Positions 491 through 34,842 of a stretch of 34,842 nucleotides of DNA are shown here, in pieces; the first letter of the stretch is position 1, and each line of letters starts with the position of its first letter. The notes below the pieces were generated by a model. That model searched no databases, was not told the DNA's origin, and was given only the letters and a program-made list of their open reading frames with translations. Source of the DNA: Tubiluchus corallicola (Eukaryota > Animalia > Priapulida); NCBI GenBank assembly GCA_030141605.1, contig JAQGDQ010001556.1, positions 1 through 34,842 on the forward strand. The letters run 5' to 3'. The position numbers and the translations under genes are program-made.

Positions 491-3222
491 GCGAGTTGCG
501 GACTATGTATTTAAGCAGGTATGTTTTTACCTTCACTGTAGAGGGCGAGTTGTGGACTTTGTATTTAAGCGGGTAGGTTTTTTACCTTCACTGTAGAGGG
601 CGAGTTGCGGACTTTGTATTTAAACAGGTATGTTTTTACCTTCACTGTAGAGGGCGAGTTGTGGACTTTGTATTTAAGCGGGTAGGTTTTTTACCTTCAC
701 TGTAGAGGGCGAGTTGCGGACTTTGTATTTAAGCAGGTATGTTTTTACCTTCACTGTAGAGGGCGAGTTGTGGACTTTGTATTTAAGCAGGTAGGTTTTT
801 TACCTTCACTGTAGAGGGCGAGTTGCGGACTTTGTATTTAAGCGGGTAGGTTTTTTACCTTCACTGTAGAGGGTGAGTTGCGGACTTTGTATTTAAGCGG
901 GTAGGTTTTTTACCTTCACTGTAGAGGGCGACTTGTGGACTCTGTATTTAAGCAGGTAGGTTTTTTACCTTCACTGTAGAGGGCGAGTTGCGGACTTTGT
1001 ATTTAAGCAGGTAGGTTTTTTACCTTCACTGTAGAGGGCGAGTTGCGGACTTTGTATTTAAGCGGGTAGGTTTTTTACCTTCACTGTAGAGGGCGAGTTG
1101 TGGACTTTGTATTTAAGCAGGTATGTTTTTACCTTCACTGTAGAGGGCGAGTTGTGGACTTTGTATTTAAGCGGGTAGGTTTTTTACCTTCACTGTAGAG
1201 GGCGAGTTGCGGACTTTGTATTTAAGCAGGTATGTTTTTACCTTCACTGTAGAGGGCGAGTTGTGGACTTTGTATTTAAGCGGGTAGGTTTTTTACCTTC
1301 ACTGTAGAGGGCGAGTTGCGGACTTTGTATTTAAGCAGGTATGTTTTTACCTTCACTGTAGAGGGCGAGTTGTGGACTTTGTATTTAAGCGGGTAGGTTT
1401 TTTACCTTCACTGTAGAGGGCGAGTTGCGGACTTTGTATTTAAGCGGGTAGGTTTTTTACCTTCACTGTAGAGGGTGAGTTGCGGACTTTGTATTTAAGC
1501 GGGTAGGTTTTTTACCTTCACTGTAGAGGGCGACTTGTGGACTCTGTATTTAAGCAGGTAGGTTTTTTACCTTCACTGTAGAGGGCGAGTTGCGGACTTT
1601 GTATTTAAGCGGGTAGGTTTTTTACCTTCACTGTAGAGGGCGAGTTGCGGACTTTGTATTTAAGCGGGTAGGTTTTTTACCTTCACTGTAGAGGGCGAGT
1701 TGCAGACTTTGTATTTAAGCGGGTAGGTTTTTTACCTTCACTGTAGAGGGCGAGTTGCGGACTTTGTATTTAAGCGGGTAGGTTTTTTACCTTCACTGTA
1801 GAGGGCGAGTTGCGGACTTTGTATTTAAGCGGGTAGGTTTTACCTTCACTGTAGAGGGCGAGTTGCGGACTTTGTATTTAAGCGGGTAGGTTTTTTACCT
1901 TCACTGTAGAGGGCGAGTTGCGGACTTTGTATTCAAGAGGGTAGGTTTTTTACCTTCACTGTAGAGGGCGAGTTGCGGACTCTGTATTTAAGCAGGTAGG
2001 TTTTTTACCTTCACTGTAGAGGGCGAGTTGTGGACTTTGTATTTAAGCGGGTATGTTTTTTACCTTCACTGTAGAGGGCGAGTTGCGGACTTTGTATTTA
2101 AGCGGGTAGGTTTTTTACCTTCACTGTAGAGGGCGAGTTGCGGACTCTGTATTTAAGCAGGTAGGTTTTTTACCTTCACTGTAGAGGGCGAGTTGTGGAC
2201 TTTGTATTTAAGCGGGTAGGTTTTTTACCTTCACTGTAGAGGGTGAGTTGCGGACTTTGTATTTAAGCGGGTAGGTTTTTTACCTTCACTGTAGAGGGCG
2301 AGTTGCAGACTTTGTATTTAAGCGGGTAGGTTTTTTACCTTCACTGTAGAGGGCGAGTTGCAGACTTTGTATTTAAGCGGGTAGGTTTTTTACCTTCACT
2401 GTAGAGGGCGAGTTGTGGACTTTGTATTTAAGCGGGTAGGTTTTTTACCTTCACTGTAGAGGGCGAGTTGCAGACTTTGTATTTAAGCAGGTAGGTTTTT
2501 TACCTTCACTGTAGAGGGCGAGTTGCGGACTTTGTATTTAAGCAGGTAGGTTTTTTACCTTCACTGTAGAGGGTGAGTTGCGGACTTTGTATTTAAGCGG
2601 GTAGGTTTTTTACCTTCACTGTAGAGGGCGAGTTGCGGACTCTGTATTTAAGCAGGTAGGTTTTTTACCTTCACTGTAGAGGGCGAGTTGCGGACTTTGT
2701 ATTTAAGAGGGTATGTTTTTACTTTCACTGTAGAGGGCGAGTTGCGGACTTTGTATTTAAGCAGGTAGGTTTTTTACCTTCACTGTAGAGGGCGAGTTGC
2801 GGACTTTGTATTTAAGCAGGTAGGTTTTTTACCTTCACTGTAGAGGGCGAGTTGCGGACTTTGTATTTAAGAGGGTATGTTTTTTACCTTCACTGTAGAG
2901 GGCGAGTTGCGGACTTTGTATTTAAGCAGGTAGGTTTTTTACCTTCACTGTAGAGGGCGAGTTGCGGACTTTGTATTTAAGAGGGTATGTTTTTTACCTT
3001 CACTGTAGAGGGTGAGTTGCGGACTTTGTATTTAAGCAGGTAGGTTTTTTACCTTCACTGTAGAGGGCGAGTTGCGGACTTTGTATTTAAGCAGGTAGGT
3101 TTTTTTACCTTCACTGTAGAGGGCGAGTTGCGGACTTTGTATTTAAGAGGGTAGGTTTTTTACCTTCACTGTAGAGGGCGAGTTGCGGACTTTGTATTTA
3201 AGAGGGTATGTTTTTTACCTTC
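491..3222. repeat. 55-bp minisatellite, about 50 copies
   Basis: Unit GCGAGTTGCGGACTTTGTATTTAAGCGGGTAGGTTTTTTACCTTCACTGTAGAGG, highly homogeneous. Confidence 0.97.
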
Positions 3223-4625: not shown

Positions 4626-5173
4626 GTAGGTACCGAGAGCACGTTGGAACTTCAGATCAAATTTGTAACAGATAAACTGAAAGGTACATCGTTAAGTGAG
4701 AAAAAGGTGTCAAAAGGTCAGCGTCGGCTGTATCAATTAGCACGTAGATCACGCAAGTGTACACAACATTAAACTACGTGGTAGTTTAAGTTGAGGTGAT
4801 TGAAGGGGGCGTGTTTTTCTTAATCTTATCCAATTAAATCACTTATAAATGTTTAGAGAAATAGCATGATTGGATAGTCGAGATTCTCCTGAATAGCTCA
4901 GTACCTCATTTGTAATCATTTAGTTATGTAAATGCTCATGCAGTAGCAGAAGAGCCATGGGCGTTGTAAGACCTCTTTTGAATGGTGCAGTCCTGGAGGA
5001 GTTTTGTAAGACCTCTTCTGAATGGTGCAGTTTTGGAGGAGTTAAGTACAAATTCGTTGTAAGAAGACCTGGATGCAACTCAGACCCGGATGTTCAAGTG
5101 GTGCGCCCGTACACATAAGATGTGAATGCGGATTAAGTATGGCGTCAACTACGGATGAATTTGTCGTAATGAA

Positions 5174-5884
5174 TTAATTAAGTTGTGTAAAGTCAAGCAT
5201 TCGTAAGTTGCACGGGTCGTAAGCGCAACTATCTGTATCAGCCACTAGAAGTCTCTATAGTCTTCCGACTGGTCCTGTTAGAATACAGCGATTAATTAAG
5301 TTGTGTAAAGTCGAGCATTCGTAAGTTGCACGGGTCGTAAGCGCAACTACCTGTATGAGCCACTAGAGGTCTCTGTAGTCTTCCGGCTGGTCCTGTTAGA
5401 ATACAGCGATTAATTAAGTTGTGTAAAGTCGAGCATTCGTAAGTTGCACGGGTCGTAAGCGCAACTATCTGTATCAGCCACTAGAAGTCTCTATAGTCTT
5501 TCGGCTGGTCCTGTTAGAATACAGCGATTAATTAAGTTGTGTAAAGTCGAGCATTCGTAAGTTGCACGGGTCGTAAGCGCAACTACCTGTATGAGCCACT
5601 AGAGGTCTCTGTAGTCTTCCGGCTGGTCCTGTTAGAATACAGCGATTAATTAAGTTGTGTAAAGTCGAGCATTCGTAAGTTGCACGGGTCGTAAGCGCAA
5701 CTACCTGTATCAGCCACTAGAGGTCTCTCTGGTTTTCAAGTCGGCCCTGTTAGAATACAGCTATTAACTAAGTTGTGTAAAGTCGAGCATTTGTAAGTTA
5801 CAAGGGTCTTAAGTGCAACTACCTGTAACAGCCACTAGAGGTCTCTGTAGTCTTCCGGCCGGCCCTGTTAGAATACAGCTATTA
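5174..5884. repeat. 118-bp tandem repeat, 6 copies
   Basis: Units start 5174, 5292, 5410, 5528, 5646, 5764. Confidence 0.95.
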
Positions 5885-5917
5885 GTTTCGATTATGTAAA
5901 CGTTTGATATTTTTCAG

Positions 5918-6046
5918 ATCAAAACGAATGTGTGAGAGGACTGGATAATTGTGACGAAGAAACAACAGATTGCAGAAATAATGAAGGCAGCTTCAGTTGC
6001 AGATGCCAGTCCGGCCACAGCACTGTAAATAGAACCCATTGTGAAG
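5918..6046 (+). CDS. cbEGF exon 3 (subtype A): DQNECVRGLDNCDEETTDCRNNEGSFSCRCQSGHSTVNRTHCE
   Basis: ttttcAG / GTtcg, 129 nt, phase 1-1. Confidence 0.92.
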
Positions 6047-11970: not shown

Positions 11971-12105
11971 ACCTGAACGAATGCGCCTCTGATGATCACA
12001 CCTGTGACTTAGACACGACGGAATGCGATAATTTCGATGGATCTTTTGGTTGTATATGTCTGGAGGGATTCAAATCATTACGCAACAGCGATACGTCATG
12101 CGAGG
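11971..12105 (+). CDS. cbEGF exon 8 (subtype A, 2 aa longer): DLNECASDDHTCDLDTTECDNFDGSFGCICLEGFKSLRNSDTSCE
   Basis: tttcaAG (AAG-type acceptor) / GTacg, 135 nt, phase 1-1. Confidence 0.9.
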
Positions 12106-12312
12106 GTACGCTATTAAAACAGTTCTTTGTTCAACGCTGTTCAGCATTTGTTGTAGTAAATGTTGTGCTGGTGGAATTTAGGTAATTAATAAAATTATTA
12201 CATCATGTTAATGCAAAAATCCTTTACTTACACAAAGCTTAAAAATTCATCTTTAAATTTTGTATCACATACTGACTTATTGTTCCCATGGCTTGTGTTA
12301 GCAGTAACACTC

Positions 12313-12835
12313 TTCTTCTTCTTCTTCTTCTTCTTCTTCTTCTTCTTCTTCCCAGCTTTTCCCTATTCGGGGTCGCCGTTGTGATTGAGTCTTCTCCACG
12401 CATTCCTGTTGTTGACCATCTCTTCATTTATGTCTTCCCTTCCCACAAGATCTTCACCGACTCTTCTTTTCAGGTGTCCATACCATCGCTATCTTGCGAG
12501 GCTTCCGCTACTTTTACTGTTCCTCTGATATTATTATTTCTAATTTTATCTAAAATTGTTATTCCCACCATCCATCTCAACATCCTCATCTCCACCACAT
12601 CCATTTTCTTCTCTTCGGTCTTCTTTAGAGAAGCTGCTTCCAGCCCATAGATTAGAGCGGGTCTGACCACTTCTTTGTGGACTTTCCCTTTAAGTCTCAC
12701 CGACTCATTCATAGAAGGTTTTGGCGCAGTTTTTACAGGCGGATGCCCTTCCTGACCCTAACCCTCCCTATTTATCCGGGCTTGGGACCGGCACTGAGTT
12801 GGGCTGGCTTGCCCCCCCCCCCAGTGGCTAGGTTA
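12313..12835 (-). mobile_element. Short internally deleted RTE-clade non-LTR element, copy 1 (twister 5' end + RT C-terminal remnant + (GAA)n tail)
   Basis: [20 protein letters not shown]...[10 protein letters not shown]...DKIRN and RWYGHLKR remnants; 3' end GGCGACCCCGAATAGGGAAAAGCTGG(GAA)n; 15-bp TSD TTAGCAGTAA(CA/TG)CTC at 12298-12312 and 12836-12850. Confidence 0.92.
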
Positions 12836-12839
12836 TTAG
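12758..12839 (-). ncRNA. Twister ribozyme (P1 type), apparently intact
   Basis: CUAA-UAA-CCUA-GCC-ACUG...CAGU-G-CCGG-UCCCAAGC-CCGG-AUAAA-UAGG-GAGGG-UUAG: P1 CUAA/UUAG, P2 CCUA/UAGG, P3, P4 and both pseudoknots map onto the recalled rice twister core. Confidence 0.85.
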
Positions 12840-13380
12840 CAGTAATGCTCTATAAAACTTAAACTCCCGCAATGACCATTAGGCACAGCCATTTTGAAGG
12901 AAAGTTTTTGAAACAAGATTAGTTAATGTTGCAAAGAGTTTGAAAAAGTTAATGAAAGCCATTCAAATCATACTCTTCACTAACTAAGCGAAATTATAAA
13001 TTACCGTATGTTGTCAGTAAGATTAAAAATGCATTTTCGGTGAAACAGTGGTGCACACTGGGACGGCGATTCTGTGACGTTTTACCTGGTGGCACGAATA
13101 TTTTAAATTACTAAGAATTTTCTTTTCTAGTAAGGTAAGTCTTTCAAGGAGGTGCGTGTAATTCAAAGTAATATAACTTTGTGTGGAAAAGGTTTTTGGG
13201 ACAGGCTTAAAAAGTCCCTTTTCTTCTCACTCTAAAGAAATCGTTGCTATTTTTTATTTTTTATTTTGGGCTTTGATTAAACTGTAAATTTTATTACTTA
13301 AAATAATCAAGAGTTTGATTCCTATTTCACTTTCACTTTCTGGTAGAGAACGGTTAGTCCTTGTAGTAGACTATCTAATA

Positions 13381-17879: not shown

Positions 17880-18125
17880 TATTTATTTTCATTGGTATGA
17901 TATAAACAGTACATATTTGTAGAAACATGAGCTTAAAGCTCGTAAACCGATATCAAACATAATGTATATGAGCGATACTGTAACATGGTAATAATATGTA
18001 CTTCTTAAAATCTTTTGCATGCCACCAGAGGTATTGGTAGAAGAAAAAATTTTTAACTACATGAAGATACTAAAAAAGTGAGACAGTAAAAAATTGAGAC
18101 AGAATTGATGATCAATTTTGCTAAT

Positions 18126-19119
18126 TGTGTGCTTGCAAACCAACACCACCCACAAGTCGGCACAGTTAAAACTACGATATGATGTCTTCAGTGTAGAATA
18201 CACCAAAAATTTAGTCAAATGTCAATTTTTTGTTTTTTATAATGCTAAACATATTGGATTTTCATATTCTAGCATCAAATTATCAGGAAAATGTTCACAA
18301 AATGGAAGCAGTCTTTTTTTTTGTTGCTAAGCACAGATCTTTGTCAGGAAGGGCCGTTTACTGGATTTAACCATTTAAACGCAGCCTGCACCTCAACTTC
18401 AACGTGGATTATCTCAGCTTAGCAATAACATAGAGCGATGAGCTTGGTATCAAAATGATCCGCATGAAATGTGTGCTTGCATTGCAAAATCGTCCATAAA
18501 TCAGCAATTAAGCTTTTCTAGTTATTCACATATCCTGAAAATCCATTTCATGAGGATCATTTTGATACCAAGTTCATCACTCTATGTTATTTCTAAGCTG
18601 AGATAATCCACATTGAAGTTGAGGTGCAGGCTACGCTTTGAAAAACATAATCTTGAGAAAATCACTGTTAAAGTCAGCCATTGTTTTTTGTTGCGTTTCT
18701 ACAAAACACTTAGCAACTGCACAAATGTTGGTTGCTATGGACTTTGCAAGAACACATTGAAGTTATGTTTAAATCCAGTAGATGGCTCTTCCTGACGAAG
18801 ATCTGGGCTTGGCAACAGAAAAAACCCGAAGCAAAATGACTGCTTCCATGAGCTACTATTGGAGTTTGAAAATACTTTTACAATTGCATTACTAATTTCT
18901 AGGCAAAAAAGTGGTTACAAGATTATAAAATTAAATTTTTAGCATTTCTTGAACACTTTCCTGGCAATCTCATGCTAGAATATAAAAGTCTAATATATTT
19001 AGCATTTGTTTTATAAAAAACAAAAAATTGACATTTGACCAAATTTTGGTGTATTCTACTTTGAAGCATCATGACGTAGTTTTAACTATGCCAACTTATG
19101 AATGGTTTTGGTTTGCACC
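18126..19119. mobile_element. Long palindromic (fold-back) non-autonomous element
   Basis: 18126-18470 is the reverse complement of 18544-19119 with indels; partial second copy at 27089-27407. Confidence 0.85.
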
Positions 19120-19365
19120 AATACAATGATGTTTTGGATGAGACGATTATACTCTATTTTACAATCCTGGCATTTCGTGTAAAACTTTTTTTCATTCTAC
19201 ATTCGTTGCACCTTACGGAAAGAGATCAAACTGTTTTACAAACATAAAAGGGTCTTGTTGTTCAATTCAATGCATGCGATACTTGTCACGTTTCGTAACT
19301 GTTCTATTTTTGCTATTATTTGTACATTAGTATAATCATTACTTGCCGTTGTTCACACGCTTTAG

Positions 19366-19491: not shown

Positions 19492-19825
19492 GTGAGCTAT
19501 GTTTCTTAATATCTAACACATCCTTCTACCCTTCCTGTGTGATCTAACCTTTCTCCCAGTTCTTTTTTGTTCACTCATCCATTTTTTATCAGATTCATAT
19601 GACAGTGGGCTTATACAAGCCTTTGCTTCTCTAGCCCACTGCAGTACAATTATTCTTTTATGATAATGCTAGTGTATGAAACATAACAATTTAATACAGT
19701 AAGATGTAATAATTTTGATGTCACTGTGTGCTTAATGTCATTATATTGTACTGAATGTGATAATAATAATAAAATTAAAAAAATCTCTGCTCTTTTAATA
19801 GTTGTTCACTTGAATAATGACTATT

Positions 19826-20328
19826 CTTCTTCTTCTTCTTCTTCCCAGCTTTTCCCTATGCGGGATCGCCGTTGTGAATGAGTCTTCTCCAGGCATTCCT
19901 GTTGTTGACCATCTCTTCATTTATGTCTTCCCTTCCCACAAGATCTTCACCGACTCTTCTTTTCAGGTGTCCATACCATCGCAATCTTGCGAGGCTTCCA
20001 CTACTTTTACTGTTCCTCTGATATTATTATTTCTAATTTAATCTCTTCTTGTTATTCCCACCATCCATCTCAACATCCTCATCTCCACCACACCCATTTT
20101 CTTCTCTTCGGTCTTCTTTAGAGAAGCTGCTTCCAGCCCATAGATTAGAGCGGGTCTGACCACTTCTTTGCGGACTTTCCCTTTAAGTCTCACCGACTCA
20201 TTCATAGAAGGTTTTGGTGCAGTTTTTACAGGCGGATGCCCTTCCTGACCCTAACCCTGCCTATTTATCCGGGCTTGGGACCGGCACTGAGTTGGGCTGG
20301 CTTGCCCCCCCCCCCCAGTGGCTAGGTT
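19826..20328 (-). mobile_element. Short internally deleted RTE-clade element, copy 2
   Basis: Near-identical to 12313-12835 with the same junctions; perfect 18-bp TSD ACTTGAATAATGACTATT at 19808-19825 and 20329-20346. Confidence 0.93.
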
Positions 20329-20333
20329 ACTTG
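20251..20333 (-). ncRNA. Twister ribozyme, probably inactive copy
   Basis: Same core as copy 1 but GAGGG is CAGGG (position 20259) and P1 is mismatched (CAAG/UUAG). Confidence 0.75.
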
Positions 20334-20619
20334 AATAATGACTATTAGTTTACTTTAAACAGTTGCATATGTTGCACAAAATGATTGTTCAACGCATCAT
20401 GCAACAGAAACCACATTCTACAGCTATTTGCAACAGCATGTTTAATTTCAGGATAAGATTTTGAGTACAGTGAGTTCTCACTTAATGACACTAATGCATT
20501 CCAGTAAGACGTGGCGTTAAGCAAAATGCTGCTAAACGAAACCAAGACTTCCGCGTAGTTGTTTTACATTAGCTTATATACAGTGGGGATCTTAATCTGA
20601 TAATGTTTAGGGGATGTTA

Positions 20620-28062: not shown

Positions 28063-28621
28063 TCTGTGTGTCCACCAATTCCAATACGAACTAGACCAAG
28101 GCATTTCTTTTAATAGCTGACACATTTTCTCACTTTTTTAAGGTGTATTTCATCCTAATACTCGACAATTTTTGCCTTTAGTTTCTTTGCGTCGAAAAGC
28201 TCTGTGTGGCCATCATACGCTTCCTCTTTAAGGGAATTCCAGATGCCATAACCCAGAGGATTACGTCCCATTTTTCTTGGCAACAAATGTTTATCAACAC
28301 TTTCCTTTCTGTGGTGACGGCAATGATGTAAACTGATTGATCTATTCATTGTTTTGTTTCCATTCTAATAAATGTTTTCATACATCGACATTGTCGTTTT
28401 CAGTTGATGATCAGCTGACATTATTGCAGCATTTAATCTTTTAACATGCAGAAGTTTTTCAGCCGTAACTTAGAAACCACTAAAATTGTAAACTTGTGAC
28501 TTTCACAACCAAAGGTTAATATTTTGCAATACCATTCTGTGAAAGTTCAATTTTGAATCTAATACTATTGCAGTCTAAGCTAAGCACGCCTGGAATTTAC
28601 GTAATGAACGAATACATAAGT

Positions 28622-29120
28622 ATTTTATAAGCTGATTAAACTGCTAAATGTCCCTACACCATTATGGATGGAAACCGACATTTTATAAGCTGGTTAAACT
28701 GCTAAATGTCCCTACACCATTATGGATGGAAACTGCCATTTTATAAGCTGATTAAACTGCTAAATGTCCCTACATTCTTATGGATGTAAATCAGCATTTT
28801 ATAAGCTGGTTAAACTGCTAAATGTCCCTACACCATTATGGATGGAAACCGACATTTTATAAGCTGGTTAAACTGCTAAATGTCCCTACACCATTATGGA
28901 TGGAAACTGCCATTTTATAAGCTGATTAAACTGCTAAATGTCCCTACATTCTTATGGATGTAAATCAGCATTTTATAAGCTGGTTAAACTGCTAAATGTC
29001 CCTACATTCTTATGAATGTAAATCAGCATTTTATAAGCTGGTTAAACTGCTAAATGTCTGGACACCATTATGGATGGAAACCGCCATTTTATATGGTGAT
29101 TAAACTGCTAAATGTCCCTA
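28622..29120. repeat. 58-bp tandem repeat, about 8.5 copies, with a 3-unit higher-order pattern
   Basis: Unit ATTTTATAAGCTG(A/G)TTAAACTGCTAAATGTCCCTACACCATTATGGATGGAAACCGAC; unit ends cycle ACCGAC, ACTGCC, TCAGC twice. Confidence 0.93.
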
Positions 29121-29190
29121 TCCTCTACAGCATTATTGTATGTAAGCACGGTAGACACATAGTTGTTTTAATTCTTTCACATTTATTTAG

Positions 29191-29319
29191 ATTTTGACGA
29201 ATGTGCAATGGGAATTGATACTTGTGATAAAGAAACGACTGTTTGTCAGAACCGAGATGGTAGTTTCCGCTGTTCTTGCACTTGGGGTCATCAACGAGTA
29301 ACGAGCAGGCTGTGTGTTG
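29191..29319 (+). CDS. cbEGF exon 14 (subtype A): DFDECAMGIDTCDKETTVCQNRDGSFRCSCTWGHQRVTSRLCV
   Basis: atttAG / GTatg, 129 nt, phase 1-1. Confidence 0.92.
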
Positions 29320-32293: not shown

Positions 32294-32422
32294 ATCGGGA
32301 CGAGTGCACCATGGTCGAGGATGATTGTAATGAATTTGCTACTTGCGTGAACACGGTGGGAAGTTTCTTCTGTCGGTGTGACGTCGAGGGATACGCAGGG
32401 GACGGTGTCAACATGTGCTCAG
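32294..32422 (+). CDS. cbEGF exon 15 (subtype B): DRDECTMVEDDCNEFATCVNTVGSFFCRCDVEGYAGDGVNMCS
   Basis: ttgtcAG / GTacg, 129 nt, phase 1-1. Confidence 0.93.
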
Positions 32423-32427
32423 GTACG

Positions 32428-34842
32428 TCACTTAACGACGTCTCGCTTTAACAACGAGGCTTCCACTTCAGCCGTTCTTTAATTATATGTACAGTATGTC
32501 CTCACTTAACAACTCCCCGTTTAACGACGTTTCACTTTAACAACGATGCTTTCACTTCAGCTGTTCTTTAATTATATGTACAGTATGTCCTCACTTAACA
32601 ACTCCCCGTTTAACGACGTCTCGCTTTAACAACGTTGCTTTCATTTCAGCTGTTCTTTAATTATATATACAGTATGTCCTCACTTAACAACTCCCCGTTT
32701 AACGACGTTTCGCTTTAACAACGCCAATCATTTGACACCTGCTTTTCACTTAACAACTCCCTGTTTAACGACGTTTCATTTTAACAACACCCATCATTTC
32801 ACACCTGCTTTTCACTTAACAACTCCCCGTTTAACGACGTCTCGCTTTAACAACGATGCTGTCACTTCAGCTGTTCTTTAATTATATGTACAGTATGTCC
32901 TCGCTTAACAACTCCCCGTTTAACGACATTTTGTTTTAACAACGCCTATCATTTCACACCTGCTTTTCACTTAACAACTCCCCGTTTAACGACGTTTCGC
33001 TTTAACAACACCAATCATTTCACACCTGCTTTTCATTTAACAACTCCCCATTTAACGACGTTTCGCTTTAACAACGCCTATCATTTGACAATAGCTTTTC
33101 ACTTAACAACTCCCCGTTTAACGACGCTTCGTTTTAACAACGCCAATCATTTGACAGCTGCTTTTCACTTAACAACTCCCCGTTTAACGACGTTTCATTT
33201 TAACAATGTTGTTTTCACTTCAGCTGTACTTTAATTATATGTACAGTATGTCCTCACTTAACAAGTCCCCGTTTAACGGCGTCTCGCTTTAACAACGATG
33301 CTTTCACTTTAGCTGTTCTTTAATTATATGTACAGTATGTCCTCACTGAACAACTCCCCGTTTAACGACGTTTCGCTTTAACAACGCCTATCATTTGACA
33401 ATAGCTTTTCACTTAACAACTCCCCGTTTAACGACGCTTCGTTTTAACAACGCCAATCATTTGACAGCTGCTTTTCACTTAACAACTCCCCGTTTAACGA
33501 CGTTTCGTTTTAACAACGCCAATCATTTGACAGCTGCTTTTCACTTAACAACTCCCCGTTTAACGACGTTTTGTTTTAACAACGCCTATAATTTGACACC
33601 TGCTTTTCATTTAACAACTCCCCATTTAACGACGTTTCGTTTTAACAACGCCAATCATTTGACAGCTGCTTTTCACTTAACAACTCCCCGTTTAACGACG
33701 TTTCGCTTTAGCAACGCCTATCATTTGACACCTGCTTTTCATTTAACAACTCCCCGTTTAACGACGTTTTGTTTTAACAACGCCTATAATTTGACACCTG
33801 CTTTTCATTTAACAACTCCCCATTTAACGACGTTTCGTTTTAACAACGCCAATCATTTGACAGCTGCTTTTCATTTAACAACTCCCCGTTTAACGACGTT
33901 TCGCTTTAGCAACGCCTATCATTTGACACCTGCTTTTCATTTAACAACTCCCCGTTTAACGACGTTTCGCTTTAACAACGCCAATCATTTGACACCTGCT
34001 TTTCATTTAACAACTCCCCGTTTAACGACGTTTCGCTTTAACGCCAATCATTTGACACCTGCTTTTCACTTAACAACTCTTCGTTTAACGACATTTTGTT
34101 TTAACAACGCCAATCATTTGACACCTGCTTTTCACTTAACAACTCCCCGTTTAACGACGTTTCGCTTTAACAACGCCAATCATTTGACACCTGCTTTTCA
34201 CTTAACAACTCTTCGTTTAACGACGTTTTGTTTTAACAACGCCAATCATTTGACACCTGCTTTTCACTTAACAACTCCCCGTTTAACGAGGTTTCGTTTT
34301 AACAACGTCAATCATTTGACACCTGCTTTTCACTTAACAACTCCCCGTTTAACGACGTTTCGTTTTAACAACGCCAATCATTTGACACCTGCTTTTCACT
34401 TAACAACTCCCCGTTTAACGAGGTTTCGTTTTAACAACGTCAATCATTTGACACCTGCTTTTCACTTAACAACTCCCCGTTTAACGACGTTTTGTTTTAA
34501 CAACGCCAATCATTTGACACCTGCTTTTCACTTAACAACTCCCCGTTTAACGATGTTTTGTTTTAACAACGCCAATAATTTCACACCTGCTTTTCACTTA
34601 ACAACTCCCCGTTTAACGACGCTTCGTTTTAACAACGCCAATAATTTGACACCTGCTTTTCACTTAACAACTCCCCGTTTAACGACGTTTCGTTTTAACA
34701 ACGCCAATAATTTCACACCTGCTTTTCACTTAACAACTCTTCGTTTAATGAGGTTTCGTTTTAACAACGTCAATCATTTGACACCTGCTTTTCACTTAAC
34801 AACTCCCCGTTTAACGATGTTTCGTTTTAACAACGTCAATCA
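32428..34842. repeat. Composite satellite of 89-bp and 66-bp units, runs off the window end
   Basis: Shared core TCACTTAACAACTCCCCGTTTAACGACGTTTCGCTTTAACAAC with two alternative linkers. Confidence 0.95.

Follow-up and report, generated by a model that had tools for sequence, protein, structure and literature searches.

A twister ribozyme at the head of a retroelement raises a question of inheritance: self-cleavage removes the 5′ strand of stem P1, so a new insertion should lack it. Does the host sequence in front of an insertion, by supplying that strand anew, decide whether the copy regains activity and can act as a source? We addressed this for an insertion, here copy 1, in Tubiluchus corallicola (Priapulida; contig JAQGDQ010001556.1); the window is the whole stretch of 34,842 nucleotides that was analysed. 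An earlier note on this DNA had proposed that only insertions whose flank restores P1 are active, with copy 1 a candidate source, or else that the element prefers such targets. The idea that the host supplies P1 is the model already in print for Perere-3 of S. mansoni, in which the TSDs adjoin the twister cut site and serve as the 5′ strand of P1, with a possible influence on how active each copy later is (PMC8501958, Fig. 5D; Liu et al. 2021).

The locus is animal and lies in a host gene whose plus-strand exons include many that encode calcium-binding EGF repeats (PF07645; 15 of 15 EGF-like motif matches are on that strand). The neighbouring exon (11971..12105, plus strand; PF07645, E 1e-10) has splice edges placed by sequence reading. 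Copies 1 and 2 of the element sit in two introns of this gene, both antisense to it, the orientation expected for intronic copies (n = 2) if active ribozymes on the sense strand of introns are selected against. The introns also hold tandem arrays at 577-3000, 5055-5944, 28564-29201 and 32343-34827 (units of 55, 118, 58, 66 and 89 bp) and an inverted-repeat element at ~18123-19127. The insertion target of copy 1 is a high-copy host repeat (~12840-13090) with variable internal joints among contigs.

From cut site to tail, copy 1 (12314..12834, minus strand) is a bipartite, non-autonomous EN-RT retroelement of the RTE type, 97% identical over 505 nt to copy 2 (19826..20328, minus strand), with homology starting at AAC. 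The element is ~520 bp long and consists, in order, of a type-P1 twister, an EN-RT coding remnant and a (GAA)n tail (12312..12351, minus strand, overlapping the TSD edge), so that the 5′ end of a LINE is joined to its 3′ end in multiple like copies, two of them in the window. The remnant (12366..12700, minus strand) derives from the C terminus of an EN-RT ORF and consists of two pieces, carrying both a frameshift and an internal gap; by tblastn it matches residues 816-884 (77% identity) and 889-962 (43%) of P0006 (E 8e-34), a protein of 962 aa with PF03372 and PF00078. The 95-aa remnant itself gave no Pfam match. TSDs of 16 nt (14 matches) in copy 1 and 18 nt (exact; 20329-20346 and 19808-19825, abutting AA, U included) in copy 2, together with the (GAA)n tails, mark both as non-LTR retroelements, the products of TPRT. 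Among metagenome contigs, the first 118 nt of the element are 82% like the head of L069, and the full-length relatives L071 and L078 carry the same twister before a single EN-RT ORF of ~1000 aa (a 1049-aa frame in L071). The partner thus has one ORF with APE endonuclease and reverse transcriptase, and because of this architecture we label the element RTE-type. In run X1, 4492 contigs match 12400-13100, part of them on the flanking host repeat.

The twister of copy 1, including the P1 strand supplied by the host, spans 12758..12839 on the minus strand (cmscan, RF03160, 64.8 bits, E 1.2e-12, model positions 1-68). This score is slightly under the gathering score of 67.2, that of copy 2 (20251..20333, minus strand; 53 bits) is under it too, and the alignment of copy 1 covers the full model, with P2, P4 and the conserved L4 and L1 nucleotides. 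We take the first G of the GAGGG loop strand, at 12766 on the minus strand, to be the equivalent of rice G45, and the A at 12834, the general-acid position, to be A7, from the Rfam alignment and the rice numbering. The G at 12766 is intact in copy 1, as the earlier note had read it, and copy 2 has a C at the equivalent position, 20259. Since G45 is the general base of the twister (PMC6154101, PMC5408937), the ribozyme of copy 2 is, judged from this substitution, likely inactive. Its P1, CAAG against UUAG, forms two Watson-Crick pairs, one G-U pair and a mismatch. In some contigs the G run at 12766 is shorter by one base (6 in X3, 9 in X4, none in X1 or X2), possibly an inactive subfamily or an assembly effect. 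Weak Rfam matches to MIR4371 and bantam are also present. Plain folding recovers neither the twister fold nor P1 (z −0.4 to 0.5 for copy 1), as is to be expected of folding that omits pseudoknots.

Copies of the family start at the twister cut site. Contigs matched to 12784-12845 numbered 733 in X1 and 173 in X2, and among the loose ends listed, the largest classes lie directly behind 12834 (34 contigs in X1, 15 in X2), followed by 14 at 12835 and 7 at 12836 in X1 and by 4 at 12835 and 2 at 12837 in X2. Across the 12834 edge the X1 depth falls from 28106 to 3954. Among the metagenome matches listed, a direct repeat of at least 9 nt was found in 5 of the 35 twister loci with enough downstream DNA, and in 4 of these 5 it abuts AA. 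Twister-headed elements of only 106-306 nt also occur in other organisms (L028, L051, L067 and L082), and their direct repeats of 10-20 nt abut AA.

At the junction of copy 1, the minus strand reads CUAA (12839-12836), U (12835) and AA (12834-12833). The 5′ TSD ends in CUAA, and these 4 nt form four Watson-Crick pairs with the element-encoded 3′ strand UUAG (12758..12761, minus strand), so the 4/4 pairing that the earlier note had pointed out stands. The 5′ TSD (12836..12851) lies within a host repeat with a small palindrome and agrees at 14 of 16 positions with the 3′ copy (12298..12313). Because CUAA ends this duplicated 16-nt sequence, it is derived from the host; as in the T-variants of Perere-3, the TSD supplies the 5′ strand of P1. 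In addition, a host-repeat consensus drawn from loose ends (52 contigs of X1, 17 of X2) crosses the copy 1 site without the element. The earlier note had the TSD read CUAA directly before UAA, which is right for CUAA; the U before the scissile bond (12835, minus strand) is a C in the 3′ TSD copy and in the host-repeat consensus and so lies outside the duplication. We also observe that the target falls in the palindrome of the host repeat (12290-12313 and 12835-12851), that the two TSD copies have drifted differently, with CpG-type changes, and that each retains a short perfect inverted repeat, the 5′ one being completed by U 12835.

For this U we consider three origins: addition without a template, a later mutation, or transfer from a template. 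If the last, CUAA-U would be partly template-derived: an uncleaved or longer source RNA with its P1 strand would have paired with the target through microhomology, and the U would be what it left behind. Microhomology priming of 5′ junctions has been described for R2 (PMC3774820), and neither the host consensus nor the 3′ TSD copy has the U. The U could equally well be untemplated or the result of a later C-to-T mutation, however, the TSD copies already differing at 2 of 16 sites; a source with a perfect P1 should itself be cleaved; and most contig copies end at 12834. We therefore regard a template origin as quite improbable.

How surprising is the perfect P1 of copy 1? A random 4-mer of the window pairs 4/4 with UUAG with a chance of 0.41% by Watson-Crick pairs and 3.6% when G-U pairs are allowed; either of two copies pairs 4/4 with a chance of 0.8%, and at least three pairs with G-U arise with a chance of 24%. 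Perfect pairing is thus rare at one locus, yet in a high-copy family, and with a copy chosen after the fact, many such matches are to be expected. A directed origin would have the element prefer, or anneal to, targets complementary to UUAG, P1 being restored on purpose at insertion. The 4/4 pairing of copy 1, the 3/4 pairing with G-U of copy 2 and a slight excess of depth at 12838-40 (657 against 384 expected in X1, 56 against 37 in X2) are in keeping with such annealing. The contig flanks, by contrast, fit chance. The loose-end consensus, with an agreement of 0.45-0.62, is not complementary to UUAG, and depth at 12835-37, a relative guide rather than a copy number, was 3954 against 4414 expected by chance in X1 and 661 against 566 in X2. 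At most about 1.4% of the X1 depth reaches 12838-40 beyond the copy 1 locus itself, and copies with a perfect P1 form a class of 1-2% at most in the contig flanks, a biased subset that includes only contigs long or divergent enough. A small excess of complementary flanks could persist, as 24 further X1 loose-end rows, taken at their upper bound, give p ~0.01. Among the X1 loose ends listed, U stands at −1 in 21 of 55 (p 0.18).

Twister flanks beyond this family give a like picture. An exact family-specific pattern had 0 matches in metagenome contigs, and a relaxed twister pattern had at least 120 loci (~220 estimated). Of the 120 listed, 40 lacked an intact AA head, 3 had flanks under 45 nt, 5 were prokaryote-like and 9 were duplicates, leaving 63 flanks, which belong to other families and organisms; this set says nothing on UU conservation, since the pattern itself required the 3′ P1 strand to begin with UU. 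Among these 63 related twisters from the matches listed, P1 had on average 1.83 of 4 pairs against 1.78 expected (p 0.38), or 0.98 against 0.99 with Watson-Crick pairs only. A perfect Watson-Crick P1 occurred in 0 of the 63 and a 4/4 stem with G-U pairs in 3, against 2.2 expected. Within the same listed matches, families F1 (31) and F2 (13) each pair at chance, and U stands at −1 in 31 of 63 against a background of 37.6% (one-sided p 0.04). The prokaryote-like twisters (L005, L017, L038, L053 and L113) share a common head and, immediately before the cut site, a GC-rich hairpin; P1 pairing in them seems slight or absent. The test for enriched UUAG-complementary flanks that the earlier note had called for, carried out on run contigs and on related metagenome flanks, thus comes out near chance, which argues against its suggestion of a target preference; we consider annealing to such targets highly improbable. 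The sections of PMC8501958 consulted here contain no such enrichment test. Because flanks are not enriched for P1, any effect of P1 must act on the choice of source rather than on the insertion site.

An effect at that level is what the claim of the earlier note amounts to: insertion would be random, but only copies whose flank restores P1, copy 1 among them, would cleave enough to serve as sources, and no enrichment among daughters would be required. A role of this kind has been put forward in PMC8501958, and when folding is modelled crudely, without pseudoknots, the native flank of 5 nt comes 2nd of 256 in favouring the twister skeleton, ~1 kcal/mol better than the mean. The unconstrained fold favours a shifted, competing helix of UAACC with GGUUA, which P1 could oppose, and a larger P1 effect is therefore conceivable in this element family. 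With 30 nt of native flank in the same model, however, 103 of 200 scrambles were equal or better, the advantage being lost to a host hairpin that takes up part of CUAA. Moreover, according to two reviews P1 is dispensable, and twisters without it cleave at almost the wild-type rate (PMC5408937, PMC6154101). Among the Perere-3 constructs described in PMC8501958, all 2A-7A variants assayed cleaved, with any base before the cut; some were less efficient, and the rate differences were ascribed to P1. Taken together, cleavage without P1 and cleavage of all variants make it more likely that P1 tunes than that it gates, and on this analysis, P1 probably sets the rate of cleavage rather than acting as an on/off switch. 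We accordingly find it unlikely that P1 restoration determines which copies are active.

Nor does copy 1 look like a source. It is antisense to the host gene and would therefore need a separate minus-strand transcript; a search of RNA runs turned up none containing more than a minor fraction of the locus, one metatranscriptome standing at 0.04. At 12490, 12507 and 12552-55 its sequence departs from that of nearly all other copies in the contigs; these private letters have an X1 depth of ~120-220, against ~270 for the locus, and do not occur in X2. They thus stand at about single-locus depth, and copy 1 shows no sign of daughters since those changes arose, although it could have been active before then. 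The suggestion that it is a source is not supported; copy 1 is likely cleavage-competent but not special in this respect.

HDV-like ribozymes retain their whole fold after cleavage, and those of Ruminski 2011 are reportedly of this type. They bear on the present element through the bipartite RTE LINEs Bov-A, RTESINE1/2, WALLSI3 and MAR4 (Kojima 2018, PMC5786205), which likewise consist of the 5′ and 3′ ends of a LINE with an internal deletion and no intact ORF, and for which a 5′ ribozyme has been discussed as a cause of the bipartite form. Unlike bipartite RTE LINEs with HDV-like ribozymes, the present element has a twister and keeps a coding remnant of ~330 nt. R2 elements and R2 SIDEs also use a 5′ ribozyme, again HDV-like, to free the element from a host co-transcript (PMC3774820, PMC3414825), and R2 junctions vary where the cut is the element end (PMC3774820); R2 is site-specific in 28S rDNA, however, with a fixed upstream context, whereas the targets here vary. 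The mini-twister (the P1-less env22; PMC5408937, PMC6154101) belongs to the same ribozyme class and indicates how a P1-less copy might behave, but this engineered substrate has a single nucleotide ahead of its cut site, in contrast to a long unpaired genomic flank. The closest system is that of the Perere-3 T-variants (RTE clade; PMC8501958), with which the Tubiluchus element shares a 5′ twister, a TSD beside the AA of the cut site, a TSD as the 5′ strand of P1 and non-specific insertion. It differs in being a ~520-bp non-autonomous element with a (GAA)n tail, a different P2 and P3 and UUAG as the 3′ strand, in another animal genome. We found no paper on this particular element; the supplements of PMC8501958, which give T-variants by organism, may include it or relatives.

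Overall, copy 1 carries a twister at the 5′ end of a short retroelement, and we think it quite probable that the element works by a known mechanism and that its 4/4 match arose by chance. A source copy would be transcribed by read-through, its RNA would be trimmed at the cut site by self-cleavage, and a full-length EN-RT partner would mobilise the product in trans by target-primed reverse transcription. Each new insertion would then obtain its 5′ P1 strand from the host sequence that happens to be duplicated.

The central idea having been published, what is new here is the carrier, together with a rough test of target preference that came out negative. The twister-capped layout described for retroelements in S. 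mansoni is thereby also seen in another animal, where the carrier is short and non-autonomous; the metagenome matches show a like layout in several other families. A more far-reaching reading, which we regard as distinctly unlikely, is that the shifted, inactive AACC/GGUU helix makes this family, in contrast to model twisters, need a host-supplied P1 in order to fold, so that only the 0.4-4% of insertions that follow a complementary 4-mer would be potential sources. If true, master loci would be predictable from four flank bases wherever EN-RT elements carry a twister cap, in many animals and plants. Copies 1 and 2 form a ready natural assay.
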